DNA of 64,000 nt. It comes from Minisyncoccota bacterium (GTDB taxonomy: Bacteria; Patescibacteriota; Minisyncoccia; JBAYJV01). The stretch lies in the NCBI GenBank assembly GCA_041664925.1, contig JBAYJV010000001.1, positions 213,438 to 277,437 of the forward strand, given 5' to 3'. Position 1 is the stretch's first letter. The number at the start of each line of letters is the position of its first letter. Positions 3,988 to 23,587 of this stretch are shown here, one piece after another. The notes beneath the pieces are model-generated. The model was not told where the DNA came from and did no database searches. It saw nothing but the letters and a program-made list of their open reading frames with translations. Made by a program: the position numbers and the translations under genes.

Positions 3988-4881
3988 TTACATCTTCCTC
4001 AAGGCTTCATCAACAACTTGAAGCACAGGAGTAGTCTTGTAAGGATAAACACCCTCCACTGCTCCCTGATGTTTGCCAGATTGCCAACTGGCAACGATTT
4101 TCCCTGTTGGTTTAAACCCCTCTAATTCATAAGCATTAACCACTCGGTTAATAGGCTTATTACCAACAACTTCTCCATCGAGAACAATTAGATCTCCAAG
4201 CTTACAATCTAGCTTCAGGTGAAGTATTGTAAGAACATCAATCCCTCTAGTTTTGCGATCCAGACAAACTAGTGCTTGACAAATACGTTCTTTGCCTCGC
4301 CAAACAACTTTTACTTCCTGCGTAAAAGGAGTATCAATAAGAGACGCTTTAACTTCGTACAAGGGAACACTGCTTAGCTCTGAAAAAAGCCTTGATCCGC
4401 TTCTAACAATTTCTTCAAGTGCCAAATCAAAACCGAAATGATCTTGTTCAAGACATGGGCACACTAGACCGGTCGGCGTCTTCAGGAAAACTTCCTCTAC
4501 CCCTTCTCTTAGTGCAGTTCTCAGAGGATAACATATCTCTTCAATAGATCCTCCCAGACCTGAACCAATCGTATCACAATCAGGATAACTAGGCGCTCCT
4601 TTATCTCGATGAAGAGCCAATAAAACTTGCTGGCCATCGCTCAATTCGACAATCATCGCTGCTCCACCAGCTGGCCAACGCCAATCAGTGTTTGAACTAG
4701 CCTCAATGACCTTGCGGCTAAGCTTATTGACTGCCACAGAAGGATTATCAGCTATTTCAACTCGCAGATGTCCTGGTGTAATAGTAACATCAGATGTTTG
4801 TACTAGTAAAAAGGTCTCTTTTTCTTGAATTGCCAACAACTCCGCTAGTGTCAGCAAGGGAATCTGTCTCACCTCATCCAT
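3988..4881 (-). CDS. hypothetical protein, paralog A of a divergent pair (start MDEVRQ after SD AAAGGAGG)
   Basis: shares ...V.L..LhRD... and ..GG..IEE motifs with 5064-6014; G+C visibly higher than neighbours. Confidence 0.5.
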   Translation of the reverse strand: MDEVRQIPLLTLAELLAIQEKETFLLVQTSDVTITPGHLRVEIADNPSVAVNKLSRKVIEASSNTDWRWPAGGAAMIVELSDGQQVLLALHRDKGAPSYPDCDTIGSGLGGSIEEICYPLRTALREGVEEVFLKTPTGLVCPCLEQDHFGFDLALEEIVRSGSRLFSELSSVPLYEVKASLIDTPFTQEVKVVWRGKERICQALVCLDRKTRGIDVLTILHLKLDCKLGDLIVLDGEVVGNKPINRVVNAYELEGFKPTGKIVASWQSGKHQGAVEGVYPYKTTPVLQVVDEALRKM

Positions 4882-4974
4882 CTTTGTTCCTCCTTTATAG
4901 AACAGGACTTTTTGTCCCGCACCATAAACACGTTGTTTAAAGTACTGTATCTGTATTCTATGGTATTTTTTTAA

Positions 4975-5031
4975 AAAAGTCAATCTATTTAGTAATATTA
5001 TTGACAAGTTTGAAATAATTTGATAGGATGT
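4975..5031. promoter_or_regulatory. back-to-back divergent sigma70-like promoters (minus: TTGACT-17-TAGAAT; plus: TTGACA-17-TAGGAT)
   Basis: hexamers read directly; -35 boxes about 20 bp apart. Confidence 0.6.
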
Positions 5032-5063
5032 TGTCAGTTCTCAAACAAAGCATAAAAGGAGAC

Positions 5064-6014
5064 GCAATGACTTTCAAACAATTAAGCGAAGTGACTGGTC
5101 AAAGAGTTGATCTTTTGACTGTAAGAACAACTAATGCTAGTGTTTTTCAGAATCAATTAGTAGTTCATCTTAATCCAGATCCCGAAGTTTTAACAACTTC
5201 TCGCGAGCGAAGAGAGCACGGTCAAAGTGACAATCACGAATGGCTTAAGTCCCAGATTAAAAAAGTAGAGAGTTCTTCTTCTATAGCAATTATTAATGTA
5301 GCTGACCAAGATCATCCTCTTGAGGTTGTCACGGGAGATGTCTGTGTTGTCCTTGTCGTTGAAGGCAAGCGCTATATTGTGAGCTTGTTGCGAGATATCT
5401 GGCCTGTGGGCTGGCTTAGTCCGGGAGGATGTCCCAGAAGTTTTATAGAACTTTTGAATATTGTGGCTGTGGCTGAAAGAGAAGCTTGTGAAGAACTGAT
5501 CATTGCTGACACTGATATCAATATCTATGTCTTAGATTCTCCTCAAAATGTAGCACGTCACAAAGAAATACTAAGAATTCTTGGACTTTATGAACACAAG
5601 CAGAAATTCCATTTCCTCTGCACAGCACAGGTGCGAGAATTAAGTCCCTATCCTGGACATGCTAATCGTTTAACTATCTACCAAGGCGGAGAACAACTTT
5701 GCGATATCGGCAATCTCAATCTGTCTATTGATCCTGTGACAGCTTCTGTCGCAGCGACGCTTTATTGGGAAATTGAGCTGCCTATTCCTTTGTCTAAACT
5801 TCGCCTGTTTGATGGAGAGCTTCTTCCTGACGGATCACTTCTCGGTCGCCCGGTAAGACTAACCCAAAAAATTGCTCTTGCCGAAGCGCCAAGTAATGAC
5901 AAAGACGAAGTTGCCGCGCTTTTCTATCGCGGAATCAATGTTCTTAATACCAGCTGGCTAAGCCCGACCATGGCTTCCAGAATCGTTGATCCCAAACAAC
6001 CTGTTCTTTCTTAA
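5064..6014 (+). CDS. hypothetical protein, paralog B (start MTFKQLS after SD AAAGGAG; the track start at 5028 lies inside the -10)
   Basis: motif similarity to 3988-4881; promoter and SD positions. Confidence 0.5.
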   Translation, partial: AMTFKQLSEVTGQRVDLLTVRTTNASVFQNQLVVHLNPDPEVLTTSRERREHGQSDNHEWLKSQIKKVESSSSIAIINVADQDHPLEVVTGDVCVVLVVEGKRYIVSLLRDIWPVGWLSPGGCPRSFIELLNIVAVAEREACEELIIADTDINIYVLDSPQNVARHKEILRILGLYEHKQKFHFLCTAQVRELSPYPGHANRLTIYQGGEQLCDIGNLNLSIDPVTASVAATLYWEIELPIPLSKLRLFDGELLPDGSLLGRPVRLTQKIALAEAPSNDKDEVAALFYRGINVLNTSWLSPTMASRIVDPKQPVLS

Positions 6015-10852: not shown

Positions 10853-11689
10853 TTACTCTTTCCACTCTCGAATCGCTTTAGCGTAAGTTTCGGGTGTGCC
10901 AATATCAAACCATCTTCCTGATAATAAATATCCGTAAAAATTATTTTCTTGAATTAACTTGGGAAAAATTTCCTTTTCAATGCTGATTGTCTGGGAATTC
11001 ATATAGTCAAAAATTTCGTATTGAAAAACAAAAATACCAGCATTGACTACATAAGACTGAATATTCTTTTTTGCTGGTTTCTCTGAAAATTCTTTTACCC
11101 GCGATCCTTCCAGTTTAACCGTTCCCAACCCCATTGGATCGGATACCGATGAAAGTGCAATTGTTCCCAACGCTTTATTTGAAATATGGAAATCAATTAA
11201 ATCGTCTATATTAACATCGGCAATTTCGTCAATGTACCAGAGTAAAAATGGTTCTTGTTTAATAAACGGCTTAACAGCCAATAAGGCTGGCGCCGTTCCT
11301 TTTTCTTTCTTGTCGTCAATATAAATGATATTAACGCCAAATCTTTCACCGTTTCCAAAGTAGGCTTTTATTTTTTCTCCCAAAGTTCCAACAACGATAT
11401 AAATATTTTTTATATTATAACCTCTGAGATAATTAATCGTGTGTTCCAAGATCGGCTTGCCCTTGATCGGAATAAGCGCTTTAGGAATTTCGTAAGTCAA
11501 AGGTCTCCAGCGCACGCCCTTTCCAGCAGCCAAAATTACCGCCTGATTAATGCTCGGCCTTAAGCTCTTGGCAATCAAAGATTCGATGGCATGAGATCGA
11601 TTGCGGACTTTTTCGCCATCAACCAATCCATCAATTTTGCCAAGCAATTTTTCGTCTAATGTAATTGTAATGCGTGATTTTTTTGTCAT
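10853..11689 (-). CDS. sugar-phosphate nucleotidyltransferase with N-terminal ribbon-helix-helix (CopG-like) domain
   Basis: N-terminal ITLDEKLLGKID...RNRSHAIESLI (RHH), then LAAGKGVRWRPLT...IPKALIP NTP-transferase motif. Confidence 0.6.
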   Translation of the reverse strand: MTKKSRITITLDEKLLGKIDGLVDGEKVRNRSHAIESLIAKSLRPSINQAVILAAGKGVRWRPLTYEIPKALIPIKGKPILEHTINYLRGYNIKNIYIVVGTLGEKIKAYFGNGERFGVNIIYIDDKKEKGTAPALLAVKPFIKQEPFLLWYIDEIADVNIDDLIDFHISNKALGTIALSSVSDPMGLGTVKLEGSRVKEFSEKPAKKNIQSYVVNAGIFVFQYEIFDYMNSQTISIEKEIFPKLIQENNFYGYLLSGRWFDIGTPETYAKAIREWKE

Positions 11690-11796
11690 ACTTTTTCTTA
11701 TCTATATCTTGCCATAATTTAAAAAATATACAAGCGATTTTGTCATTCTGAGAAACTGAAGAATCCCGCGTATCTTGAGTAGTGTTAATTTTACTT

Positions 11797-11826
11797 GACA
11801 TCTGATAAGAATGTGATAATATATAA
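11797..11826 (+). promoter_or_regulatory. sigma70-like promoter TTGACA-16-TAATAT
   Basis: hexamers read directly; followed by SD AAAGGAGG and ATG at 11851. Confidence 0.5.
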
Positions 11827-11850
11827 GCAAGTGAGAGAAAAGGAGGAGAA

Positions 11851-12243
11851 ATGAGTCGAGAAATTGTCCAAGCGGGATTAACAGGATTTGTTGGACCGAT
11901 TGAACATAGCCTGCTCGATGCCCTAAACAATGCCTGGGATAACCGCACTTCGAGAGATGAAGATGGTTTAAAGAATACGCTTAGTAAGAAAATACAGAGT
12001 TTCGTTGGTCCTTTATTTAGAATAGCTACTAGTGACGGATATAAATGGTTCTGGGCAGCCAATTTCAAAATTGGCGCTGGGAAGTTAGTGTTGCTTTTCC
12101 CTTGGAGCCAAGATTGGAAGAAAAAAGACAGATCTCAGATGGACCGATCAATCGGTATTTATACAGAAGGAGAAGTTGACGACGACGCACTAAACACAGT
12201 TCTTGTTCAAATCATTAGGGCTCTTGAAAGACCAACAAGATAA
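11851..12243 (+). CDS. hypothetical 130-aa protein (G+C-richer cassette gene)
   Basis: own promoter, SD and terminator. Confidence 0.5.
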   Translation: MSREIVQAGLTGFVGPIEHSLLDALNNAWDNRTSRDEDGLKNTLSKKIQSFVGPLFRIATSDGYKWFWAANFKIGAGKLVLLFPWSQDWKKKDRSQMDRSIGIYTEGEVDDDALNTVLVQIIRALERPTR

Positions 12244-12249
12244 GAATCC

Positions 12250-12308
12250 AGAAGGAGCAGAAGAAATCTGCTCCTTTTTTTAATTTATTGAAGTCCGACT
12301 TCGATAAA
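12250..12308 (+). terminator. terminator module: GAAGGAGCagaagaaatcTGCTCCTTTTTTT followed by hairpin TTGAAG-TCCGA-CTTCGAT (direct-repeat copy A)
   Basis: near-identical to 12959-13016. Confidence 0.7.
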
Positions 12309-12420
12309 CGCATTATCCTAAGTATAGCGAAAAATCTCGCGTTTAGTTATTTCCCTTAAAATTCTTCCTCCTACAACGCTACAACATAGAGTCAGGATGA
12401 CAAAAAAAGCACATAATTAT

Positions 12421-12448
12421 TTGACATTAAAAATTATTATGATAAGAT
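12421..12448 (+). promoter_or_regulatory. sigma70-like promoter TTGACA-16-TAAGAT
   Basis: hexamers read directly. Confidence 0.5.
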
Positions 12449-12475
12449 AAAAACCGAACGGATAAAGGAGGCGTC

Positions 12476-12955
12476 ATGAAACAACCAAGTTCGGTCGAAA
12501 AAAACACTCCAATGGCTTTAATCCGCCAGAACCTGTTTGGATGGCTTGATAAAAAGGATTGGACGACACAAGAGCTAGTCGATTGGCTTACTGGTTACAA
12601 ACTCTTAGAAATCTTAAACACAGGATGCGACGACGAACCATATGGCTTAATCGTAAAAGCGCTTGAAGATGGAGTCGAGAGAAATCGGAAAAGACTCCTC
12701 AAGGATGAATTAGCGAGAAGAATCGCTAAACTCCTTAATGAAGGACCAGATGTTAACGGACCATGCGCGTCTCAGATAAGAAATGATCAATTGCTTTATA
12801 ATTTGCTTTTATTAGCAGCTTGCATAAAACGTTATCGAACTCTCCAAAGACCTCTTTGTGATATGCGACAACGAGGCAAATTAATAAACAGAAATTACTT
12901 AGCCATTAGTCTAAAGAGACTCCTTGATGATGCAATCTCACATCAATACAAGTAG
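12476..12955 (+). CDS. hypothetical 159-aa protein (cassette gene)
   Basis: SD AAAGGAGG; flanked by ~58-nt direct repeats. Confidence 0.5.
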   Translation: MKQPSSVEKNTPMALIRQNLFGWLDKKDWTTQELVDWLTGYKLLEILNTGCDDEPYGLIVKALEDGVERNRKRLLKDELARRIAKLLNEGPDVNGPCASQIRNDQLLYNLLLLAACIKRYRTLQRPLCDMRQRGKLINRNYLAISLKRLLDDAISHQYK

Positions 12956-12958
12956 AAT

Positions 12959-13016
12959 AGAAGGAGCAGAAAGAGTCTGCTCCTTTTTTAATTTATCGAA
13001 GTCCGACTTCGATAAA
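12959..13016 (+). terminator. terminator module, direct-repeat copy B (GAAGGAGCagaaagagtcTGCTCCTTTTTT + ATCGAAG-TCCGA-CTTCGAT)
   Basis: see 12250-12308. Confidence 0.7.
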
Positions 13017-13024
13017 TTATCTCC

Positions 13025-13094
13025 AATATTGACAAATAATAAACCTTGTTTTAGGATTGGGACAGTTCTTAAAAAATCTAACAAAGGAGAAAAG
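13025..13094 (+). promoter_or_regulatory. promoter TTGACA-17-TAGGAT and minimal leader (AGTTCTTAAAAAATCTAACAAAGGAG)
   Basis: direct reading. Confidence 0.5.
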
Positions 13095-13589
13095 ATGAAT
13101 GAAAGAAGAAAGACAAAGAAAGAGATTCGAGCAGAGTACGAAAGAAAATGGACTCTGGTAATGGCTCGATGGCTTGGCAGATTTGTCAGGAAGCCCAAAA
13201 ATAATGGTGATATCTTCGTGGGAATTTTCGGCGGCGAAATCGAAATATTTAAAAGACCTGTATATATGACAGATCTCCAAATATCAAAATTGTCGCCACT
13301 GGCTCAGGTAAAAGAAGAAACTAGAATACGGATGAAAAAATTTCCACCATCAGGAAAAAGATGGAACCCATTTAATGATTTCACTCCATGGATGGGTCCA
13401 AAAGGATTGCTTAAGAAAATTAGGACAACAGGTCTTTTGAATGTCTTTCTGGCAAAACTTGATCTTAGCAACCAACTTAATGGTATCGAAGAACTCTTTG
13501 GTTGGTTGGAAAATGATCCAAGTGTATTGGCAAAACTTATGGCCGAAGCGCTTGTCGAGATTCTCGAAGAAAAAAGTTTAAAGCCATAA
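13095..13589 (+). CDS. hypothetical 164-aa basic protein (start MNERRKT; the longer track ORF begins upstream of the promoter)
   Basis: promoter and SD positions. Confidence 0.5.
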   Translation: MNERRKTKKEIRAEYERKWTLVMARWLGRFVRKPKNNGDIFVGIFGGEIEIFKRPVYMTDLQISKLSPLAQVKEETRIRMKKFPPSGKRWNPFNDFTPWMGPKGLLKKIRTTGLLNVFLAKLDLSNQLNGIEELFGWLENDPSVLAKLMAEALVEILEEKSLKP

Positions 13590-13615
13590 TCGTTTGTTTC
13601 CAAAAGGAGGAAAGA

Positions 13616-13948
13616 ATGACACATGAATGGATGAAAGGGATCAGAGGGCTTGAAGTAGAAGCTGGTGCGCCGGCAAGGCTTTGGTATCCTGGAACAGGAG
13701 ACGGAATAAAGATCAGTGGAAAATTTGTGATTACTTTTGAAAACGGAGAAACGCTCGTGGGCATTTGGGAGATTTATTCTTCTCAAATGTATTTAAAAAC
13801 TAGTGATGGAAAACGCATAAGGAAAGATCATTCTTTGATCAGTCAAGCATTGCGCATAGAAATTGCAAATAGAGTTAATGAAGTCTGCAGAGTTTCATTT
13901 ACCACAATGATTCTTGAGAGTGCAATAAACGCAGAGCTTATCGATTAG
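13616..13948 (+). CDS. hypothetical 110-aa protein, probably co-transcribed with 13095-13589
   Basis: SD AAAAGGAGG; no intervening terminator. Confidence 0.5.
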   Translation: MTHEWMKGIRGLEVEAGAPARLWYPGTGDGIKISGKFVITFENGETLVGIWEIYSSQMYLKTSDGKRIRKDHSLISQALRIEIANRVNEVCRVSFTTMILESAINAELID

Positions 13949-13968
13949 TAAAAGAACAAATAGAAACA

Positions 13969-13998
13969 CAGAAGGAGCGAATAGTCGCTCCTTTTTTT
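13969..13998 (+). terminator. terminator GAAGGAGCgaatagtcGCTCCTTTTTTT (third member of the GAAGGAGC family)
   Basis: direct reading. Confidence 0.7.
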
Positions 13999-14176
13999 CA
14001 TTTTTTACCCAAGAATAAATGATTGGTTGTAAAAAATAGAACCCGCCTTTGGCGGGTATTACCAATCAAAATCGGAGGCTAAGCCTCCGATTTCTTATCT
14101 TACAACAAAATTAATCAATTTATCTTTCACCCCGCAAAATTCATTGCATTCATCGCGGGGCAAGCAAAAATCTAGA

Positions 14177-16840
14177 TCACTTAACTACAAAGTTTATTAG
14201 TTTATCCTGAACGTAGATCACTTTGACGATTTCCTTATCTCTCGTCCAGCCAATAATTTTTGAAGAAGAAAGCGCTTTTTCTTTTGCCTCTGATTCTGAA
14301 ATACCAATCGGACACTCAATCATTTCTCTGACTTTCCCATTCACCTGAACAACCAAACTAAATACGTCTTTTTTAATTAATTTTTCGTCATACTTCGGCC
14401 AAGGCTCTTCTGAAATTGACCTGAAATTAGAATTTGTTTCGGATTTCGGATTTCGGATTTCGGATTTGAGGAGTTGATATAACTCCTCTGTGATATGAGG
14501 CGCAAATGGTGAAAGGATTATTAAGAATTTTTCAAAAACTTCTTGTGCTAAATCCTTCGCTTTTTCAATTTCATTCAAAAAGATCATCATTTGAGAAACT
14601 GCCGTATTAAACTTCATCTGCTCAATGTCTTCCCCGACTTTCTTAATCGTCTGATTTAATAATCTTTCTAAATCTTTTGATTCCTGACCTTGAATCTTTG
14701 ATCCATGTTTTTCGCTTTTCGCTTTAAGCTTTACGCTTTCTCCTAAGTCCCAAACCCTACTCAAAAATCTATTCACTCCAATAACACTTTTCCCTTCCCA
14801 CGGAATTGCTTGATCAAATGGCCCCATAAACATTTCATAAAGCCTGACTGTGTCAGCTCCATATTCTTTTACGTAATCATCGGGATTAATGACATTGCCT
14901 TTTGACTTTGACATCTTAATTCCGCCCTCGCCCAAAATCATGCCATGAGCGGTTCTTTTTTTATAAGGCTCCGGTCCGCATTCTCTTGGAACTGCTCCAA
15001 TATCATAAAGAAATTTATAAATAAATCTTGAATATAATAAATGCAGTGTTGTATGCTCCATCCCGCCATTGTACCAATCAACCGGAGTCCAATATTTCAT
15101 TTGTTTCGTATTTCGTATTTCGAATTTCGAATTTTCGCTTATAGTATAAGCGATGTAGTACCAATTAGAACCCGCCCAGTTGGGCATGACATCGGTTTCT
15201 CGCCTTGCCTCGCAACCGCATTTTGGACATTTTACCTTGACCCAGTCTTTTGCCTTTGCCAATGGCGAGTCACCATCTTTCGTTGGTATAAAATCTTTAA
15301 TTTCCGGTAATTCAATCGGCAAATCTTTTTCTGGCACCGCAACCCAGCCAGGATTCAGAATTTCTCCTTCGTTGTGTTTCGTATTTCGTATTTCGTATTT
15401 CGTATTTTCCATTAATTTTTTGCACTTCGGGCAAAATATTAATGGAATCGGTTCTCCCCAATATCTTTGTCTTGAGAAAATCCAATCGCGCAAATGGTAA
15501 TTGATTGTTTTATCTCCTAATTTATTTTCCTTTAGCCAAGCGATTATTTTTTTCTGCGCTTCTTTGGTTTCAAGTCCATTCAAAAAACCAGAATTAATAT
15601 TAATGCCATCGCCCTCGTAAGCTTCGCTTTCCGCGAAGTTAGAATTTTGAATTTTGAATTTTGAATTTGTTTCGGATTTCGGATTTCGGATTTCGGATTT
15701 TAAATCATCCGTCGGCTTTACCACAATTTCGATCGGCAAATTATATCGCTTCGCGAATGCGTAATCACGAGTATCGTGTCCCGGTACTGCCATAATTGCC
15801 CCTGTTCCATAATCCATTGAAACATAATCTGCTATAAAAACAGGAATTTCTTTTTTTGTTGCTGGATTAATTGCCTTAATTCCCTTAATCTCAACTCCCG
15901 TTTTTTTCAACCCAAGGTTGACCAGCCTCGGGCTGGCTTTTTTTATATCACTAATATACTTTTCAATTTCTTCATAATTTTCGATTAACGATTCACTATT
16001 AACGATTAACGAATGATCAGGAGCAATCACCAAAAATGTCGCCCCAAAAATCGTATCTGCTCTTGTTGTGAATACCTCCAAATAGTTTTGGTCATTTGGA
16101 TTTAAATTATTAGATATTGTTTCGGATTTCTGATTTCGGATTTCGAATTTAATGCTTGCTCCTTCCGATCTACCAATCCAATTAATTTGCTGATTCTTGA
16201 TTCGATCCAAATAGTCAACATTTTTTAAATCATCGATCAGTCGATCAGCATATTTAGTAATTTTTAGAATCCATTGTTCACGTTCTTTTTTTATAACTTC
16301 GCTTCCGCATCTTTCACAAACTCCACCAACCACCTCCTCATTAGCTAAGCCAATTTTGCAGCTTGTGCACCAATTAATATTTTCTTTCGCTTTATAAGCT
16401 AAGCCATGTTTGAATAATTGGAGGAATATCCACTGGGTCCATTTATAGTATTCCGGATCGGAAGTTGAAAGCACTCGCGACCAATCAAAAGAAAATCCCA
16501 AAGATTTTAATTGCCTTGTGAAAATAGCAATATTTTCTTTGGTAATAATTTTAGGATTAACTTTTCTTTTTATGGCATAATTTTCTGTCGGTAGCCCAAA
16601 AGAATCAAAACCAATGGGATAAAGAACCGAATATCCTTCCATTCGGCGTTTTCGGCAAATAATATCCATCGCGGTATAGCTTCGTGGATGACCAGTATGA
16701 AGCCCATCTCCAGACGGATAAGGAAATTCTACTAAACCATAAAACTTCTTTTTTTCCTTATTTTCTTTAGCGTGAAAAATTCCTGTCTTTTCCCAAATAG
16801 CTTGCCACTTCTTTTCAATTTTTTCCGGATCGTAAGGCAT
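14177..16840 (-). CDS. leuS: leucine--tRNA ligase carrying five in-frame low-complexity insertions
   Basis: HTGHPRSYT (HIGH-like) and KMSKSKGN motifs; CP1 editing domain; start taken at MPYDPEKIEKKWQ. Confidence 0.9.
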   Translation of the reverse strand: MPYDPEKIEKKWQAIWEKTGIFHAKENKEKKKFYGLVEFPYPSGDGLHTGHPRSYTAMDIICRKRRMEGYSVLYPIGFDSFGLPTENYAIKRKVNPKIITKENIAIFTRQLKSLGFSFDWSRVLSTSDPEYYKWTQWIFLQLFKHGLAYKAKENINWCTSCKIGLANEEVVGGVCERCGSEVIKKEREQWILKITKYADRLIDDLKNVDYLDRIKNQQINWIGRSEGASIKFEIRNQKSETISNNLNPNDQNYLEVFTTRADTIFGATFLVIAPDHSLIVNSESLIENYEEIEKYISDIKKASPRLVNLGLKKTGVEIKGIKAINPATKKEIPVFIADYVSMDYGTGAIMAVPGHDTRDYAFAKRYNLPIEIVVKPTDDLKSEIRNPKSETNSKFKIQNSNFAESEAYEGDGININSGFLNGLETKEAQKKIIAWLKENKLGDKTINYHLRDWIFSRQRYWGEPIPLIFCPKCKKLMENTKYEIRNTKHNEGEILNPGWVAVPEKDLPIELPEIKDFIPTKDGDSPLAKAKDWVKVKCPKCGCEARRETDVMPNWAGSNWYYIAYTISENSKFEIRNTKQMKYWTPVDWYNGGMEHTTLHLLYSRFIYKFLYDIGAVPRECGPEPYKKRTAHGMILGEGGIKMSKSKGNVINPDDYVKEYGADTVRLYEMFMGPFDQAIPWEGKSVIGVNRFLSRVWDLGESVKLKAKSEKHGSKIQGQESKDLERLLNQTIKKVGEDIEQMKFNTAVSQMMIFLNEIEKAKDLAQEVFEKFLIILSPFAPHITEELYQLLKSEIRNPKSETNSNFRSISEEPWPKYDEKLIKKDVFSLVVQVNGKVREMIECPIGISESEAKEKALSSSKIIGWTRDKEIVKVIYVQDKLINFVVK
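14436..14467. repeat. heptamer microsatellite (TTTCGGA)n inside leuS, encoding SEIRNPKSETNS
   Basis: direct reading. Confidence 0.8.
15104..15137. repeat. heptamer microsatellite (TTTCGTA/TTTCGAA)n inside leuS, encoding FEIRNTK
   Basis: direct reading. Confidence 0.8.
15376..15408. repeat. heptamer microsatellite (TTTCGTA)4 inside leuS, encoding YEIRNTKHNE
   Basis: direct reading. Confidence 0.8.
15643..15703. repeat. (GAATTTT)3 + (TTTCGGA)4 inside leuS, encoding SEIRNPKSETNSKFKIQNSNF
   Basis: direct reading. Confidence 0.8.
16119..16150. repeat. heptamer microsatellite (TTTCGGA/TTTCTGA)n inside leuS, encoding FEIRNQKSETISNN
   Basis: direct reading. Confidence 0.8.
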
Positions 16841-17070
16841 AATGATTAACTCAAAAATCAAATCTTAAAACTCAAAGCCAAAACCCAAAACTATTAAGCT
16901 ATTTATTTTTTAGATTTAAGTTATGGTTTTAACTTTTGAATTTTAAGCTTTAAGTTTAACTTAATAATATCATAATATAGTACTATATTATCTAAATTTG
17001 CTTAAAAAGAAAAGAGCGCAGCTTTTACTACGCTCTTTATGTCTAATGATTTTTATTTCCTCTTCTAAGA

Positions 17071-17457
17071 TTAGGGTCTTTGAATGAATACTTCGCCGCT
17101 AATACTTTCGCCAGCTCGTTTAACCCATGAAAGAGGAATACCGTGAATGATTGTGCTATCTGTTGGTCTTTGACATGTCGTTGCCTTGGCTTCTCTTCCT
17201 GCGACCAATTCAGCAATCTGGCTAGATAGCATCCAAAGATCCATCAATGGATTTGCATCATCACTCTTCTGTAAAAGCACTTCGTCACCATGACCTTCCA
17301 CTGCGCCAATTACACAACTAGGTGAAATGTCTCTAAGACATAAGCCACTGCTTCGTTCTGTGGTATAAGCAACAACCTTTTCTCTTTTATTAAACCTAAC
17401 TAAATCATCTGGTCTGATAAAATAAAAAGTTCCGCATTTTCCCGATTGATTTTCCAT
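17071..17457 (-). CDS. hypothetical 128-aa protein (G+C-rich cassette gene)
   Basis: SD GAGGAGGAAAG-ATG; terminator hairpin at 17005-17040. Confidence 0.5.
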   Translation of the reverse strand: MENQSGKCGTFYFIRPDDLVRFNKREKVVAYTTERSSGLCLRDISPSCVIGAVEGHGDEVLLQKSDDANPLMDLWMLSSQIAELVAGREAKATTCQRPTDSTIIHGIPLSWVKRAGESISGEVFIQRP

Positions 17458-17536
17458 CTTTCCTCCTCGACTTTTCCTATTTGCTGAGCTTTTGAAGAAC
17501 TGTCAATATCTTAAATCAAAATTTATTGTGTGTCAA
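17458..17536 (-). promoter_or_regulatory. promoter TTGACA-17-TAAGAT with short leader (AGTTCTTCAAAAGCTCAGC...GTCGAGGAGG)
   Basis: about 90% identical over ~90 nt to 18085-18164. Confidence 0.6.
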
Positions 17537-17589
17537 GTCTAAAAGAAAAAAAAGGCGTAGCTCTTGCTACGCCCATCATGTTTTTGTGA

Positions 17590-18084
17590 CTATGTTTCAA
17601 TTTCAGCGCTTGCCTCTACGCCTTCACGCTGCGGCATCGCGCCTACAAAACGAGCAAGTCTCTCCAAGTATTCACGACAATCGACATGCGCAGATTTGCT
17701 TTCCGTCCCTTCGCTTTTGAATAATATAGTAGTACCATCGTCTTGATGCCTATAATCAACACGAGCACAACCCTCAGAATATTCAAAAATTACAATGCGA
17801 ACACCATTGTCAAGACAAAACAACGCGTAATCTTCGGCGACTACCCAACGAGATCTTTGACTACAAGTACCTGTAACAGACGGCTTCTTCTGAACTTCAA
17901 AGTACTGATTCTGTGCTCCATGTCTCTCTCTAGTATAGCCAACAATCCAATCAAAAGGAATGTCGCGCATACATACATGCCCCTTCTCTTCGTCTACCTG
18001 ACCAAGTGCTACTTCGCCTTTTAGCAAGTAGTCTACCTGATGAGGTAAAAAGTAAAGTCTCTCGATTGTCTGTGCGCTTCCCAT
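17590..18084 (-). CDS. hypothetical 164-aa protein (G+C-rich cassette gene, apparently unrelated to 17071-17457)
   Basis: same promoter-leader as the neighbouring gene; terminator hairpin 17549-17580. Confidence 0.5.
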   Translation of the reverse strand: MGSAQTIERLYFLPHQVDYLLKGEVALGQVDEEKGHVCMRDIPFDWIVGYTRERHGAQNQYFEVQKKPSVTGTCSQRSRWVVAEDYALFCLDNGVRIVIFEYSEGCARVDYRHQDDGTTILFKSEGTESKSAHVDCREYLERLARFVGAMPQREGVEASAEIET

Positions 18085-18164
18085 CTTTCCTCCTCGACTT
18101 TTCCTATGCGCTGAGCTTTTGAAGAACTATCAATATCCTAAGTTATAATTATTCAAATGTCAAG
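18085..18164 (-). promoter_or_regulatory. promoter TTGACA-17-TAGGAT with short leader, duplicate of 17458-17536
   Basis: direct reading. Confidence 0.6.
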
Positions 18165-18262
18165 CTAAAAACAAACAAATCGTATCAAATACGATTTATA
18201 GTTCTGATTAATTCATTCCTAATTCTTGATTCCTAATTCCAACTCGTTAACCCATTAACACG

Positions 18263-18706
18263 CTAACCCGTAACTTCTTTTCTGCAATACGGACAATGTT
18301 TCCATCCCTTTTTTATTGTTTTTCCACAATTGGGACAATGCTTAAAAATCTCACCTCCGCAAGAAGGACAGAAAACAAAGTTTTCTTTAATCTCAAGACC
18401 ACATTCGGGACAACCAAAAACATCTTGAGATAAATTTGAGAGTTCTTCTTCATAAGCCCTTTCTGATTTTGTCCTTGCTGGTCTGATTAAAAGATAGCCA
18501 AGTAATCCCGGCAAGTGAAAAAACAAAGGAAGAAGAATAACAAGATATTGAGATACCGATTTTTTATAGCGCCTTCTTGCGTCTTTGGCGACAAAGCTGA
18601 CTCCGCCTAACCAAACCACAACAAACAAAACCCAGAGTGAAGTTTTTAATATTTTAAAAAATTCACTTTTTGCTATTAAATCTAAAATTTGTTGAAACTC
18701 TTCCAT
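18263..18706 (-). CDS. membrane-anchored double zinc-ribbon protein
   Basis: TM helices followed by four CPxCG-type pairs at the C-terminus. Confidence 0.55.
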   Translation of the reverse strand: MEEFQQILDLIAKSEFFKILKTSLWVLFVVVWLGGVSFVAKDARRRYKKSVSQYLVILLPLFFHLPGLLGYLLIRPARTKSERAYEEELSNLSQDVFGCPECGLEIKENFVFCPSCGGEIFKHCPNCGKTIKKGWKHCPYCRKEVTG

Positions 18707-18707
18707 T

Positions 18708-20615
18708 TTATTGCTGAATCATAGACACAATTTCTTTGGGTGGATTTTCTATCGCGATTTTCATAATATCTGCCCACAGAGGAATAGCTAGCTGTAAACT
18801 ATCAACCGTGCTTTTTAAAAGAGAACTATCGTGATTCCCCAACCAGATGCCTACAATTATATCAGAATTATATCCAATTGCCCAAAAATCTCTTGGACCG
18901 TTACTGGTACCAGTTTTAACGCCGGTATTTTTTAAAATCGGATCGGCAGCAAATTTCTTAGTGGAAGAAAAATTATTTAAACTTTTTTTAAGAACGCTAT
19001 CTACTTCGCCAATCGCCTCTTTTGAAAAAATTTGACTTGAAGAAACTTCTGGATTTGCCATCAAAACCTTTCCGTTATTTTGTTTAACTCTGGCAAAATA
19101 ATTCGGCTTGAAACATTTTCCTTCGTTCGCTAGTGCAGTATAAGCCGAGGTAATATCAAGTAAACTTGCCGAAGCTCCGCCGATTGCCATTGAAAGACCC
19201 GCTTCTTTATTAAGATTTAAATGACAACTTGAAAGCGCATCTGTGAATCTTTTGGTGCCAATCTTTTCAAGAGTTGCAACTGCAGGAAGATTTAATGAAT
19301 TCACTAAAGCAGATTCTAGAGTTACTTTTCCTCTGAAATAGCCGCTAAAATTTTTCGGCTTATAGCCATTAAAATCCATAGGCTTGTCTTCAAGAATAGT
19401 TTTTTTTGTCCAGCCAAGATCCTGAATTGCCAAGGAATAAAGAAACGGTTTAAGAGTTGATCCCGGCTGCCTCAATGAAATTGCGCCGTTGTGCTGACCA
19501 TATTCTTCTTGATAAAAATCAGGAGAACCGACCATCGCCAAAACATCACCATTTTTCGCATTAATCACAACCACCGAACCATCATCAATTAAATATGGTT
19601 TCTTATATTTACTAATGGCATTTTTAAGAATTTTCTCTGTTTTTTCTTGAAGATTTAAATCAATAGTCGTTACAATTTCAAGACCTTCATTGATAGATTC
19701 TTCTGAAAAAATATTTTTGACATTATCTAAAACATAAAAGGAAAAATGAGGCGCCAAAACTTCTTTTTTTTCGCTTTGAAAATTTATTGGCTCCTTTTTT
19801 GCTTTATTTAATTCAAATTCATCAATAACACCCCTTTCTTTCATCAAATTTAATAATTCTTCTTTCTTTTTTGAAAGCTCTTCAGGATGATCGTAAGGAA
19901 AGAGACTATTGGGTGATCTAGGAATAGGCGCGATTGTTGCTGATTCAGCTAATGTTAAAAATTGAGCAGATTTTCCAAAAAAAGCGCGACTCGCCGCTTC
20001 AATGCCATAAATATTTGAACCAAAAGGAATTTTGTTTAAATAAAATTCTAGGATTTCCTTTTTAGAATATTTTCTTTCTATCTCACGAGCAAGAATCATT
20101 TCCTTTATTTTTCTTGAATAGCTGACGTCGCGTGTCAAAAAGAAATTAGTCGCAAGCTGTTGAGTGATAGTGCTCGCCCCGCTAATAACCCTCTTGTAAT
20201 AAAAGTTTTGCCAAAGGGCTCTGATGTTCGCCCAGAAATCAACACCAGAATGAGTGAAAAAATATTGATCCTCAGCCACCAAAATTGCCTTAAGAAAATA
20301 CGGTGAAACATTTTCAACTTTTGTGTAAATTCTTTGCTCGTCGCCAACTTCTTCATAAAGCAGTTTTCCTTCCCTGTCGTAGATATGGGTAATCGTTGGG
20401 TAATCCTCCTTAGTGATCTTAACTTCCGGAAGATCCTTGGAATAATATTCATAGACCTTATCTAGTATAGTCATTCCTAAGAAATTAATGCCGACAATGA
20501 GCAAAGTCACAAAACCTAAAAGTATGAAAAATTTGGGAAGCCAAAAAGAAAGACCCTTTGATTGTTTCGGTAAATATTTTCTTTTAAGAAGAATTTTTCG
20601 TTTTTTGCGTTGCAT
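18708..20615 (-). CDS. class A penicillin-binding protein (glycosyltransferase GT51 + transpeptidase)
   Basis: AEDQYFFTHSGVD GT51 motif; RQPGSTLKP SxxK transpeptidase motif; N-terminal TM. Confidence 0.8.
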   Translation of the reverse strand: MQRKKRKILLKRKYLPKQSKGLSFWLPKFFILLGFVTLLIVGINFLGMTILDKVYEYYSKDLPEVKITKEDYPTITHIYDREGKLLYEEVGDEQRIYTKVENVSPYFLKAILVAEDQYFFTHSGVDFWANIRALWQNFYYKRVISGASTITQQLATNFFLTRDVSYSRKIKEMILAREIERKYSKKEILEFYLNKIPFGSNIYGIEAASRAFFGKSAQFLTLAESATIAPIPRSPNSLFPYDHPEELSKKKEELLNLMKERGVIDEFELNKAKKEPINFQSEKKEVLAPHFSFYVLDNVKNIFSEESINEGLEIVTTIDLNLQEKTEKILKNAISKYKKPYLIDDGSVVVINAKNGDVLAMVGSPDFYQEEYGQHNGAISLRQPGSTLKPFLYSLAIQDLGWTKKTILEDKPMDFNGYKPKNFSGYFRGKVTLESALVNSLNLPAVATLEKIGTKRFTDALSSCHLNLNKEAGLSMAIGGASASLLDITSAYTALANEGKCFKPNYFARVKQNNGKVLMANPEVSSSQIFSKEAIGEVDSVLKKSLNNFSSTKKFAADPILKNTGVKTGTSNGPRDFWAIGYNSDIIVGIWLGNHDSSLLKSTVDSLQLAIPLWADIMKIAIENPPKEIVSMIQQ

Positions 20616-20744
20616 AGGGCTTGCGATTATGGTTCACTTCGTTTATTATATAATATGTTAGATTTTTCTGCCAAGAAATCGCAAAGCAATTGCGCGGCTT
20701 GAAAAATCTTTATATTAGAGAATCTCTGTTATAATTATAATAAT

Positions 20745-20879
20745 ATGATAAAAGGATCAAGACAACAAACAATAAAGAGAAAAAGAAAGTTTGGTTTTCT
20801 CAAACGAAGTCTCACAAAAGCCGGACGAGAAGTTTTGGCGCGTCGCAGAAGAAAGGGAAGGGCGAAGTTAACTGTTTAA
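20745..20879 (+). CDS. rpmH: 50S ribosomal protein L34 (44 aa, below the ORF-track cutoff)
   Basis: [44 protein letters not shown]; classical position upstream of rnpA. Confidence 0.8.
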
Positions 20880-20902
20880 TTCTCGCTCTGTGGCGACATT
20901 CT

Positions 20903-21250
20903 ATGTTAAAAAAGAAATACCGTCTTTCAAAAAAAGACTTTGAAACTGCTTTGAGAAAAAAAGGGACTTATCTAAAAGTAGATTTTTTGAAGTTCAAAGT
21001 AATTTACAATAATTTGGAAACAAGTCGTTTCGGTGTTTCTTGTGGTGTCAAGATTTCAAAGAAAGCAGTTATGCGTAATCAAATTAAGCGCCGCATTAAC
21101 GAGTCTTTAAGACTCAATTTTTCTTCTATAAGACTTGGTTTTGATGTCCTGGTGATGCCAGATCCAATTGTTATCGAAAAAACTTACCAAGATATAGATA
21201 AAGCAATTTTGGAATTCATAAAAATATTAAATACTGGCAGCTCCAGTTAA
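20903..21250 (+). CDS. rnpA: ribonuclease P protein component
   Basis: basic RnpA-like protein with RNQIKRRI motif; rpmH-rnpA-yidC synteny. Confidence 0.75.
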   Translation: MLKKKYRLSKKDFETALRKKGTYLKVDFLKFKVIYNNLETSRFGVSCGVKISKKAVMRNQIKRRINESLRLNFSSIRLGFDVLVMPDPIVIEKTYQDIDKAILEFIKILNTGSSS

Positions 21251-21326
21251 TATTTACCAATTACCAGCTACTGATTACCGATATTACTACTACTTAATAC
21301 TTATTACTTAATACTTAGTTTAATAT

Positions 21327-22157
21327 ATGTCCCTCTATAGCACTTTCATTCTACATCCCATCGCAAACCTAATGGTTTTGATATATAACTATCTTCCTAT
21401 TAAAGATCTAGGTTTAACGATTATTATTTTGACTATTATTATTCGACTTTTATTGTTGCCCTTATCCTATAAAGCCGCAAGAACACAAAGAGAAATCACT
21501 AAAATCCAACCAAGGCTTAAAGAAATCCAAAAGCAATACAAGGATAATCGCGAAGAACAGGCAAAGCTTTTGATGGCTCTCTATAAAGAGCACAAAATTA
21601 ACCCTCTGTCTGGTATTATTCCAATCTTAATTCAATTACCAATTCTGTTTGCCCTTTATCGTAGTTTTATGATGTTGATCAAGGGAACAGCGGCTATAGG
21701 TTCTAGTTTAGGCGCTTTAGTCGCCACCACGACAACTTCAACAATTGCTGTAATTTCTACCACAACACCTGCTATTGCTTCATTACTATATAGTTTTGTT
21801 GTCGATCCTGGCACAATTAATCCGACATTTTTGGGCTTAGTTGATTTATCTCAAAGAAATATACCGCTAGCAATAATTACGGGTCTTTTGCAGTTTGCCC
21901 TTTCCAAAATGATTGCCGGAGGAGCCCAGAAAACAAAAAGTGGTGATAAAAAATCTCCCAGTATTGGCAACATGATGGGAACCCAAATGACCTATATTTT
22001 GCCGGCCATGACTGTTTTGTTTGCTCTTCAATTACCTGCCGGCCTTCCCCTTTATTGGGCAACTACAACCCTTTTTAGTCTTGGTGAGCAGTTCTGGATA
22101 AAAAGAAAACATCCTGATCAATTAATAAAAAACGACCAAGAAATAAAAGCTTTATAA
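21327..22157 (+). CDS. yidC: membrane protein insertase YidC (short form)
   Basis: KAARTQREITKIQPRLKEIQKQYKDNREEQAKLLMALYKEHKINP motif region; 5 TM. Confidence 0.75.
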   Translation: MSLYSTFILHPIANLMVLIYNYLPIKDLGLTIIILTIIIRLLLLPLSYKAARTQREITKIQPRLKEIQKQYKDNREEQAKLLMALYKEHKINPLSGIIPILIQLPILFALYRSFMMLIKGTAAIGSSLGALVATTTTSTIAVISTTTPAIASLLYSFVVDPGTINPTFLGLVDLSQRNIPLAIITGLLQFALSKMIAGGAQKTKSGDKKSPSIGNMMGTQMTYILPAMTVLFALQLPAGLPLYWATTTLFSLGEQFWIKRKHPDQLIKNDQEIKAL

Positions 22158-22167
22158 ATTTAGTGTT

Positions 22168-23586
22168 ATGAGCGTTTTTCGTAAAATTACCCTAAATACT
22201 TTAATTGCCTCTGGAGCGAAAATAATTGATACTGTTTTCGCTCTGTTTTTAATTGCGCTTTTAACTCGTTATTTGGGCACAGAAGGATATGGTAAGTACA
22301 CGACAATCATTGCTTATGTCAACATTTTTATCACTTTTGCGAATCTGGGACTTTACAACATTCTTCTTAGAGATATTGGCAAACCGGGAGCTGACGAAAG
22401 CGAGCTTTCAAGTATTGCTTTTACTCTAAGATTTGTCGCTGGACTAATTATTGTTCCCGTATCGATTTTGATTGCTTTTCTTTTGCCATACCCGCCCATC
22501 TTAAAAATCGGCATCACTATCGCAGGCTTATCAACACTTTTTCTTTCTCTCTATCAGGTTCTTGTGCCTATTTTTCAAAAACATTTCAAAATTATTTATG
22601 TATCGATGGCGGAACTCGCCAATCGAATTATTTATTTAGGCCTTGCCTTTGTCCTTTTTACAAAATTTAATAGTGGTCTTATTCCTATTGTTTGGGCAAT
22701 GGTCATTGCAAGTTTTGTAAATTTCATTTTGGTTTTTTGTTTCGCTCAGCGCTTTACTAAAGTTAAAATTAGTTTTGATTGGAAAAAGTGGAAGCTTCTT
22801 TTAAAAGAAGCTCTTCCTATTGGAGCATCAATTATTTTCACTCTCATTTATTTCAGAATTGACACTGTTATGCTTTCGATCATGAAACCAGCAGGAGATG
22901 TGGGCATCTATGGTCTTGCTTATAAAATTCTAGAAAACCTCATATTTTTCCCTGCAATGTTTGTTGGTTTTGTTGTACCAGTTTTATCTCGTTATTATGT
23001 CGAAGATCTTCAAAAATTTAAAGAAACCTTCCAAAAAGTTTTCAATATTTTCATTTTAGGAATTGTACCTCTCGTGATTGGCTTAATTTTTACGGCCTCC
23101 CCGATTGTAAGGCTTTTAGGAGGAGAACCTTTTATGGCTGCCTCACCAGTTCTTCAAATTCTCTCAGTCGCGGTCGGTTTCATTTTCCTAGGAAGCCTTT
23201 ATGGACAAGGAGTGATTATTATAAAAAAACAATTCGTCGGTATGTGGATTTATATGGCTGGCGCTATTTTTAACATTCTTATTAATCTTTATTTTATTCC
23301 TCGTTTTTCTTATACAGGCGCCGCTATCACCACCGCCCTGACTGAATTGTTTATTACAATTTCTTTAATTTGGATAGTGAGTCGAAAAACCCATTTCTTT
23401 CCATCGCTTAAAATTTTCTCTAAAGCTTTCTTGGCAATTCTTCCTGTAATTATTTTTCTTTACCTGTTTGGAAATTTGCATATTATTTTATTAGTCGCTA
23501 TAAGCGCTATTATTTATTCCGCCGTTGTGCTTTTATTGGGAGGGATCTCTAAAAAAGATATTAAACTTTTCTTGCATCACGCTTAA
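22168..23586 (+). CDS. polysaccharide flippase (Wzx/MOP superfamily)
   Basis: 472 aa, about 12-14 TM helices, typical N-terminal region. Confidence 0.6.
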   Translation: MSVFRKITLNTLIASGAKIIDTVFALFLIALLTRYLGTEGYGKYTTIIAYVNIFITFANLGLYNILLRDIGKPGADESELSSIAFTLRFVAGLIIVPVSILIAFLLPYPPILKIGITIAGLSTLFLSLYQVLVPIFQKHFKIIYVSMAELANRIIYLGLAFVLFTKFNSGLIPIVWAMVIASFVNFILVFCFAQRFTKVKISFDWKKWKLLLKEALPIGASIIFTLIYFRIDTVMLSIMKPAGDVGIYGLAYKILENLIFFPAMFVGFVVPVLSRYYVEDLQKFKETFQKVFNIFILGIVPLVIGLIFTASPIVRLLGGEPFMAASPVLQILSVAVGFIFLGSLYGQGVIIIKKQFVGMWIYMAGAIFNILINLYFIPRFSYTGAAITTALTELFITISLIWIVSRKTHFFPSLKIFSKAFLAILPVIIFLYLFGNLHIILLVAISAIIYSAVVLLLGGISKKDIKLFLHHA

Positions 23587-23587
23587 T

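Follow-up and report, generated by a model that had tools for sequence, protein, structure and literature searches.

The array of four small genes at positions 11797–13998 of a 64,000-nucleotide stretch of contig JBAYJV010000001.1 (hereafter the window, with positions counted from its first letter) is probably a strain-variable, replacement-type island of modular transcription units, which would be reshuffled by ordinary recombination, with no dedicated recombinase, in a family-level clade of Candidatus Paceibacterota. The host of the island is a metagenome-assembled genome (MAG) of Candidatus Paceibacterota (candidate phyla radiation (CPR)/Patescibacteria), and exact-protein look-ups found the locus in identical copies across three independent data sets. 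The slot is bounded on the left by a gene for a sugar nucleotidyltransferase fused to a ribbon-helix-helix (RHH) domain and on the right by the leucyl-tRNA synthetase gene leuS, both on the minus strand. The four open reading frames (ORF1 to ORF4) would belong to a restricted, closed set of small cytoplasmic proteins that are specific to the lineage and evolve fast. As we reconstruct it, each unit would have a strong promoter of the TTGACA type, then an AAGGAGG ribosome-binding site, one or more ORFs and an intrinsic terminator with a GGAGC stem, and in one sub-clade a palindrome of 25–31 nt would have been added after the terminator.

Variability of the island among relatives and between two haplotypes of one MAG

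The same slot was recovered from about 12 distinct relatives, with the ORF homologues and the nucleotidyltransferase as anchors, and its content was determined by tblastn and all-against-all BLASTP (Table 1). The relatives without the palindrome (L034, L035, L017 and L028–L030) show cassette variability equal to that of the others. In the comparison with relatives that had been set beforehand as a refuting test, the cassettes were not found at identical positions; the repeats were nonetheless restricted to the locus. A literature search returned nothing relevant on hypervariable islands in Patescibacteria.

Table 1. Content of the slot in the window and in related loci (1–4, families of ORF1–ORF4; T, terminator; P, promoter; DR, direct repeat)
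Locus	Protein identity with the window (amino acids)	Island content
Window		1-2-3-4
L034	leuS 96.6%	3a-3b-T-P-1-T
L035	ORF4 77%	..3-4-T
L008/L022	flank gene 97%	only 2-T, with a membrane protein encoded on the opposite strand
L011/L014	flank gene 97%	2-DR-P3-3-1-DR'
L017	flank gene 73%	3-T-P-1-T
L023	flank gene 76%	4 plus unrelated minus-strand genes
L028/L029	flank gene 66%	fam16-T-P-(58-aa membrane peptide)-4-T
L030	flank gene 64%	4-T, after a decayed terminator remnant fused to the promoter

The four families appear to be long-standing residents of the slot, down to relatives whose flank gene is 64–66% identical, and no member was found outside the nucleotidyltransferase–leuS slot among 5.8 billion proteins (for ORF3, among 1.84 billion cluster representatives). 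Such confinement to one slot argues against import from a broad mobile pool and against the foreign origin that had been suggested in the preliminary description of this DNA. The G+C content, put there at 42–45%, was measured as 38.2% for 11797–13998 versus 35.7% for the window, a small excess of about 2.5 points that likewise speaks against foreign origin. The ORFs of the island have 38.2–41.5% G+C and its spacers 32–34%, and the native genes at 3988–6014 have 41–43%. The island DNA showed no similarity to phage or plasmid records in the collections searched.

A replacement of a segment is suggested by a comparison with L034 (GCA_041671265.1, contig JBAZBV010000002.1), which is 99.17% identical to the window over 14095–24076 (9,982 nt). 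To the left of 14095, identity falls to 87% (nucleotides of the nucleotidyltransferase gene) or homology is lacking altogether, and the island content is different. The right breakpoint is sharp and coincides with a 36-nt duplicate of the leuS end; the L034 contig starts at the nucleotidyltransferase gene, and the left breakpoint would lie beyond the end of that contig. One NCBI MAG holds both haplotypes on consecutive contigs that end or begin at the locus. In that MAG, MFA6895932/WC242_01820 is ORF2 of the window and MFA6895939/WC242_01855 is the ORF1-like gene of L034, with accessions seven apart, and the locus tags of the two versions run from WC242_01815 to 01835 and from WC242_01840 to 01855. 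On the simplest reading, two coexisting strains were probably binned together, differing by a replaced segment that comprises the nucleotidyltransferase gene and the island. A true duplication of these loci within one genome was also considered and is less likely, because the ENA contig of the window passes straight from ORF4 into leuS and onward. For users of MAGs this is a matter of caution, since one bin contains two island haplotypes and the contigs break at the locus.

Promoters, terminators and the 58-nt repeats

The three best plus-strand promoter matches (P1, P2 and P3; Table 2) lie 29–38 nt 5′ of the start codons of ORF1–ORF3 and score 10/12 each, in agreement with the consensus promoters described earlier for the first three units. 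The further claim that each gene has its own promoter holds for ORF1–ORF3 and fails for ORF4, which lies 26 nt after ORF3 and has a ribosome-binding site only, so that there are three transcription units, not four. The pattern TTGACA-N16-18-TAnnAT occurs 16 times in the window versus 0.78 expected, and 3 of the 16 occurrences are inside the 2.2-kb array; this type of promoter is taken as genuine in the organism. The −10 boxes of promoters in the window are mostly TAGGAT or TAAGAT and strongly sigma-70-like. P1 and P2, taken with their 5′ untranslated regions (UTRs), align with a score of 15 versus −3.4 ± 4.4 for shuffled sequences, and none of 2000 shuffles reaches 15. The P1/P3 and P2/P3 alignments are not significant against shuffles, despite the same consensus boxes.

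The direct repeats after ORF1 and ORF2 (DR-a and DR-b), which the earlier description had called near-identical, are 86% identical in the terminator part and 97% in the 33-nt palindrome part, with one indel in the T-run; the third terminator said to close the array (T3) was found as well. In its predicted fold, each 58-nt repeat forms a pair of neighbouring hairpins, first a 12-bp stem with a U-run, then an AT-rich stem of 11–14 bp (−26 to −32 kcal/mol, z-scores −6.4 to −8.8). The motif GAAGGAGC..GCTCCTT is present three times in the 64 kb, all within the array, versus 0.01 expected. The terminator copies carry U-runs and have free energies of −17 to −33 kcal/mol, and the distance from stop codon to stem start is 7 nt for ORF1, 4 nt for ORF2 and 22 nt for ORF4. 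In an alignment of 16 terminator copies from 10 haplotypes, 98.4% of the stem cells pair versus 53–78% in slid controls, and 4 of the 12 stem pairs show compensatory double changes (19 cells). Examples are GCAGA/TCTGC versus GCGA/TCGC and GCGG/CCGC, and AAGGAG/CTCCTT versus AGAGGAG/CTCCTCT and GGGGAG/CTCCCC. Because of the covarying stems, the U-runs and the position just past the stop codons, the GGAGC hairpins are identified by sequence and covariation as intrinsic terminators, at which transcription would presumably end.

The terminator motif is confined to the island in 33 of 33 related loci (each up to ~20 kb). Its copies are more alike inside one genome than orthologous copies are across genomes, which points to duplication or gene conversion; the two copies of L029 are 100% identical over 41 nt. 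The palindrome has a narrower distribution. Its core is found in the window only in DR-a and DR-b, versus 0.04 expected, and among the related loci it is restricted to L011–L015 and L021, being absent from L008, L017, L023, L028–L030, L034 and L035. In relatives such as L029 and L034 the T-run of a terminator directly adjoins the next −35 box. The arms of the palindrome vary symmetrically (TTTATCGAAGTC..GACTTCGATAAA versus TTTAACGGAAGTC..GACTTCCGTTAAA), as would be expected of a hairpin and of a dimeric binding site alike; the single asymmetric change, in DR-a, retains a U-G pair on the plus strand only.

Two minor repeats were noted in the spacers. A 14-nt inverted repeat, TTTTGTCATTCTGA / TCAGGATGACAAAA at 11738–11751 and 12392–12405, encloses the entire ORF1 unit, and its arms are only ~75–90 nt apart in L008 and L016, both of which are without ORF1. 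The decamer GTCATYCTGA was considered as a dispersed repeat and rejected: exact matches are confined to two island copies and one-mismatch counts are at chance.

Mosaic alleles, rearrangement junctions and the proposed course of events

The alleles of the island are mosaic. Between the window and L008 the synonymous divergence (dS) of ORF2 is 0.36, and between the window and L011 that of ORF3 is 0.39, as compared with 1.76 for ORF2 of the window and L011 and 0.77–1.05 for the flanking gene. ORF2 of the window is 83–97% identical to L008 over its 5′ two thirds, its last ~45 codons resemble L016/L011, and the identity switches inside the gene near 12810. The block composed of DR-b, P3 and the first half of ORF3 is 85–93% identical to L011.

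Other junctions connect whole units. In L008 the terminator of ORF2 is joined to sequence that in the window follows T3, presumably as the result of a deletion between terminator copies. When the arrangement ORF3-ORF4 (window, L035) is compared with ORF3-ORF1 (L011, L014), the spacer and the ribosome-binding site are common up to the start codon, and the two arrangements reconverge at the terminator. The rearrangement junctions coincide with short functional motifs that are shared, namely ribosome-binding sites, terminator hairpins and the edge of the palindrome, except for one inside ORF2. The preliminary description had likened the array to cassettes built by repeat-mediated insertion. Its cassette-like aspect is borne out by interchangeable units and by several junctions at the terminator or palindrome; its dedicated mechanism is not, as discussed below.

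We propose that the 58-nt repeats are paralogous copies of one terminator-plus-palindrome module, which would have been spread or kept alike by local duplication or gene conversion. As a side effect, general recombination or replication slippage may make use of their short homology, and perhaps of breakpoints prone to hairpin formation, and units would in this way be deleted, duplicated and swapped. In addition, islands would be replaced wholly or partly when divergent strains occur together and recombine homologously through the conserved flanks. The order 1-2-3-4 of the window would most likely have arisen from a 2-3-1-like ancestor. In such a course, a unit of spacer, P2, ORF2, terminator and palindrome would have been duplicated in tandem, its right end coinciding exactly with the edge of the palindrome; ORF1 would then have taken the place of the first ORF2 copy by an exchange whose two joints were the ribosome-binding site and the terminator, and ORF4 would finally have displaced the distal ORF1 at joints of these same two kinds.

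Several observations weigh against this explanation. Of the repeats of L011, the ORF2-type one (90%) resembles DR-a more closely than the one behind ORF1 does, so that gene conversion or the specific exchange proposed above is needed. The duplication of the ~35-nt spacer segment is only moderately supported, its likeness being reached by 12 of 2000 shuffles, and the likeness of P1 and P2 is partly due to common consensus elements. The exact 25-nt core of the palindrome, TTTATCGAAGTCSGACTTCGATAAA, was found in three other intergenic sites in a scan of 185,579 species genomes (Table 2). Since these sites are in Omnitrophota and in another Patescibacteria MAG, a purely local duplication of terminators does not explain them. 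The copy in L005 has the same single-base variant as DR-a; the palindrome was not found in viral contigs. The path is moreover a reconstruction from a handful of metagenomic haplotypes, with which other orders of events would fit too, the searches of this genome for repeats and recombinases covered the 64-kb window, and a biological role of the island is something that we infer.

If the proposed explanation is right, the locus would be a small and clean example of a genome-reduced CPR bacterium that maintains a strain-variable locus without mobile-element machinery, in which promoter, ribosome-binding-site and terminator modules double as recombination joints and whole alleles are swapped between coexisting strains.

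Table 2. Features of the island, its borders and the extra-locus palindrome cores (positions are those of the window unless a locus is given)
Feature	Position	Strand	Basis or remark
Left conserved flank: sugar-1-phosphate nucleotidyltransferase, N-terminal ribbon-helix-helix (CopG)	10853–11689	−	Pfam NTP_transferase, RHH_1; divergent from the island
~35-nt spacer segment, copy 1 (GTCATTCTGAG..GAATCCCGCGT)	11738–11775	+	includes left arm of the 14-nt inverted repeat around the ORF1 unit
Promoter P1, TTGACA-16-TG-TAATAT	11795–11822	+	with 5′ UTR, paralogue of P2
ORF1, 130 aa	11851–12243	+	family also in L014, L011, L017 and L034, there the last gene of the island
DR-a: intrinsic terminator (12250–12281) and palindrome TTTATTGAAGTCCGACTTCGATAAA	12250–12308	+	repeat alignment, motif search, folding
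~35-nt spacer segment, copy 2	12309–12348	+	begins exactly at the DR-a end
Promoter P2, TTGACA-16-TG-TAAGAT	12421–12448	+	kept in L008, L011, L014 and L016
ORF2, 159 aa	12476–12955	+	recombinant allele
DR-b: intrinsic terminator and palindrome (perfect 15+1+15 at 12989–13019)	12959–13016	+	orthologous module in L011, L014
Promoter P3, TTGACA-17-TAGGAT	13029–13057	+	DR-b/P3 block 93% identical to L011
ORF3, 164 aa	13095–13589	+	family also in L011, L014, L017 and L035; two tandem paralogues in L034
ORF4, 110 aa	13616–13948	+	predicted to be co-transcribed with ORF3; most widespread family (L035, L023, L028–L030)
T3: GGAGC-family terminator, short-stem type, without palindrome	13970–13995	+	motif search, covariation
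Two hairpins, ACCCGCC..GGCGGGT and AAATCGGAGGC..GCCTCCGATTT	14041–14093		conserved right island border, common to L008 and L017
36-nt duplicate of the leuS 3′ end (VKDKLINFVVR*)	14095–14130	−	99.2%-identity tract with L034 begins here on the left
Right conserved flank: leucyl-tRNA synthetase (leuS)	14177–16861	−	ORF list and profile search
Palindrome core, Omnitrophota MAG JADHYL01	L004 2130–2154		purB-purC spacer
Palindrome core, Omnitrophota MAG JADHYL01, second contig	L006 7754–7778		directly after a TATAAT box
Palindrome core, Patescibacteria MAG JBBTTI01	L005 7934–7958		near DnaA-box-like TTATCCACA, ~35 nt 5′ of a TTGACG −35 box

Alternative explanations

What, then, is the palindrome for, and could it be the agent of the rearrangements? 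It might be a transcription-factor operator, bound by the RHH-nucleotidyltransferase or another regulator and conserved for the regulation of a downstream promoter. The palindrome of DR-b ends 10 nt 5′ of the −35 box of P3, an arrangement kept in L011 and L014, two of the extra-locus cores lie near promoter-like boxes (TATAAT in L006, TTGACG in L005), the flanking gene encodes a DNA-binding RHH domain, and a dimeric binding protein would account for the symmetric changes of the arms as readily as a hairpin. However, the palindrome of DR-a is 113 nt away from P2, no promoter lies downstream of the copy after ORF1 in L011/L014, which adjoins the stop codon of leuS, it is a terminator rather than a promoter that constantly accompanies the palindrome, and many relatives have equivalent promoters without it; we therefore consider an operator unlikely. 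A site-specific cassette system, integron-like or resembling Xer/dif modules, in which the palindrome would be the site for a tyrosine recombinase or another factor encoded elsewhere, could account for the palindrome at unit boundaries, for the movement of ORF1 between positions together with its downstream repeat, for a duplication junction of the window exactly at the outer edge of the palindrome, for the symmetric changes of the arms and for the identical core in intergenic DNA of other phyla. The outer ends of the palindrome (GTTAAAT) are also reminiscent of what we take to be the XerD-arm ends of dif sites. Against it, there are only two palindrome copies in 64 kb, both at the locus and none at the ORF4 end; the relatives without the palindrome are equally variable; other junctions map to terminator stems, to ribosome-binding sites and to the interior of ORF2; no integrase, recombinase or transposase domain was detected in any gene of the window, its sole recombination protein being RuvC; and attC-like GTTRRRY cores are absent, the units having promoters of their own. 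Nor does the geometry agree with that of dif sites, which is 11+6+11 (PMC6449649): the palindrome is perfect and, being symmetric around one base (15+1+15), would have a central region of odd size (7). These points, which likewise leave the earlier idea of dedicated repeat-mediated insertion unsupported, make a site-specific system very unlikely. A more general version, in which the units would be moved or regulated by a trans-acting factor recognising the palindrome (TTTATCGAAGTC-S-GACTTCGATAAA), be it a Xer-type recombinase encoded elsewhere or the RHH-nucleotidyltransferase, seems to us equally remote. If it were true, the locus would represent, in CPR bacteria, a minimal system of cassette exchange that lacks an integrase, and the cores in Omnitrophota and other Patescibacteria would mark a cross-phylum mobile or regulatory element.

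The terminator-plus-palindrome could also be a small mobile non-coding element, similar to a miniature inverted-repeat transposable element (MITE) or a repetitive extragenic palindromic (REP) sequence, inserted independently after ORF1 and ORF2. The near-identity of the two copies over 58 nt would agree with this, as would the resemblance of the palindrome to an insert of ~30 nt between a T-run and a −35 box (compare L029 and L034) and, again, its core in other phyla. The repeat is nevertheless at orthologous positions after ORF2 and ORF1 in L011 and L014, hence not the product of independent recent insertions; no further copies were found in the 64 kb or in the flanks of the 33 related loci, target-site duplications and terminal inverted repeats beyond the palindrome itself are lacking, and the window encodes no RAYT or transposase. 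We regard such an element as highly improbable. As for mere chance or convergence of terminators in an AT-rich genome, the array then being an ordinary operon-poor stretch, terminator designs with an A-tract, a GC core and a U-tract are common, and nearby hairpins also hold GGAG cores (14069–14093). Yet the threefold occurrence of GAAGGAGC..GCTCCTT here and only here far exceeds its expectation, the identity runs through loops, upstream context and the palindrome segment, and the motif is island-confined in all loci, with the identical copies of L029 as a further instance; coincidence is thus the least credible of the explanations, with hardly any probability left to it. The replacement-type island reshuffled by ordinary recombination remains the explanation that we favour.

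The four small-protein families

The four ORFs are mutually dissimilar, as had been described, with BLASTP E values of at least 0.085 and hhalign probabilities between family profiles of at most 1.3%. Hidden paralogy among the four families was considered and rejected on the negative hhalign comparisons. The families are small: among 5.8 billion proteins, ORF2 is represented by five clusters, ORF1 by four and ORF4 by two, and ORF3 has four matches among the 1.84 billion cluster representatives. Family alignments reveal conserved motifs in each, namely GPIEHSLLDALNxAW, FPW and MDRSIGIY in ORF1, DDEPY, LKDELA and NDxLLYNL in ORF2, WLGRFVxKPK, WNPF..PW and MAEALVEIL in ORF3, and WMKGI and G.F...FE.G...G.W in ORF4.

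Pairwise ratios of non-synonymous to synonymous divergence (dN/dS) are 0.10–0.40 for ORF1, 0.16–0.40 for ORF2, 0.19–0.42 for ORF3 and 0.22–0.52 for ORF4, and because of these values ORF1–ORF4 are taken as real coding genes under purifying selection. Their non-synonymous evolution is 10–20 times faster than that of the nucleotidyltransferase gene in the same genome pairs. The latter has a dN/dS of 0.01–0.02, and its protein is 96–97% identical between haplotypes whose DNA is only 87–89% identical.

Profile searches with ORF1–ORF4 gave no Pfam match at the curated cutoff and nothing significant in PHROGs, PADLOC and NCBIfam, and a PDB sequence search with the family profiles of ORF1, ORF2 and ORF4 gave nothing below E 0.25. 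The AlphaFold2 model of ORF1 is an alpha/beta sandwich (predicted local distance difference test (pLDDT) 70.5, predicted template modelling score (pTM) 0.67), whose best Foldseek match in PDB has an E value of 0.07 with template modelling (TM) scores of 0.25–0.4; no match being significant, no fold was assigned. The model of ORF2 is all-helical and of low confidence (pLDDT 58), with no significant Foldseek match in PDB. No evident signal peptide or transmembrane segment was seen on inspection of the four sequences. Fast evolution, strain variability and strong expression signals would all fit a role of these proteins in conflict or interaction. They make up four new small-protein families (five or six counting those of relatives), and are candidate phage or host interaction factors in Paceibacterota, where such functions are barely known.

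The ORF1 homologue of L011–L013 has an in-frame TAA at codon 9 (L011 11249–11275) and is called as 109 amino acids from a downstream start; it may be a decaying copy. The homologue of L014 is intact, with 129 amino acids.

Comparison with known systems

Among known systems, replacement-type flexible genomic islands appear to be the best fit; few examples have been described from the host clade. Such islands vary between strains, stay at a fixed position and are swapped when their conserved flanks recombine homologously (Lopez-Perez et al. 2014, PMC4033161). The present island resembles them in its fixed slot between conserved genes, its differing content in near-identical strains (99.2% flank identity), a sharp identity breakpoint at the edge, the lack of mobility genes and the mosaic alleles. 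Unlike those islands, which are glycosylation or O-antigen clusters of tens of kilobases, it spans only 0.6–3 kb with 1–4 genes, encodes ORFan small cytoplasmic proteins in a CPR host and is reshuffled internally at repeated promoter, ribosome-site and terminator modules.

Integron cassette arrays share with the locus short unrelated ORFs on the same strand, structured imperfect repeats of ~60 nt and a content that varies among relatives. However, the window has no intI and no attI, and the 58-nt repeat forms a pair of separate, perfect hairpins without the R''/L''/L'/R' layout, the GTTRRRY core or any GTT triplet. Integron cassettes are mostly promoterless and expressed from Pc, in contrast to the three units here with their TTGACA promoters, conserved in relatives; the junctions are, moreover, not confined to the repeats, and the families do not come from a broad mobile pool. 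The rAID-1 orphan-immunity arrays of Bacteroidales possess a conserved recombinase of the XerD family, and their genes, as many as 31, have immunity homologues that can be recognised (Ross et al., bioRxiv 10.1101/471110). The likeness lies in small, diverse, fast-evolving genes, repetitive intergenic sequences and a slightly skewed G+C content, and the difference in the lack of a recombinase in the window, of any immunity or defence match (PADLOC, Pfam, NCBIfam) and of more than four genes.

The pdif sites of Acinetobacter plasmids are 28 bp long (11+6+11), have distinct XerC and XerD arms and flank every module, which is moved by XerC/XerD (PMC6449649). Those modules, too, are small (1–3 genes), have short palindromic sites at their borders and move from one replicon or strain to another; here, on the other hand, a perfect palindrome with one central base is present in only one sub-clade and at some boundaries, on the chromosome of a CPR bacterium. 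REP and MITE sequences have many dispersed copies per genome, as opposed to two local copies in 64 kb and none in the flanks of the related loci. With intrinsic terminators, including tandem or bidirectional hairpins, the repeats share a GC-core stem, an A-tract and U-run, compensatory changes and a position directly past stop codons. They differ from the usual ones in that one stem sequence, confined to one locus, is reused for unrelated genes and in that one sub-clade couples it to a second, AT-rich perfect palindrome.

Flanking genes and other features

The RHH_1 domain of the nucleotidyltransferase was detected with an E value of 3.7e-6 (27.1 bits versus a cutoff of 20.5), and its NCBIfam matches begin at residue 49. 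Rfam searches found only four tRNAs in the window, the nearest ~18 kb from the island, and no match inside the island itself.

At the right border, 14095–14176 contains the leuS 3′-end duplicate, then a CCCCGC..GCGGGG hairpin and then the true leuS stop codon. The duplicate is present in L034 too and is nearer to the leuS end of L008 (94%) than to that of the window. In the relative represented by L007, L008 and L022, a gene for a membrane protein of 151 amino acids lies between leuS and the island, and the leucyl-tRNA synthetase has 1125 amino acids, with a Ham1p_like (inosine triphosphatase) domain inserted. The leuS gene of the window carries five in-frame insertions, at 14438–14466, 15105–15133, 15378–15406, 15671–15699 and 16121–16149. 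Each is composed of three copies (21 nt) of a heptamer of the TTCGGAT or TTCGTAT type and encodes peptides like SEIRNPKSE- or YEIRNTK. The heptamer pattern has 16 matches versus 0.43 expected, nearly all within leuS, and looks like a repeat that colonises coding sequence while the frame is kept intact.

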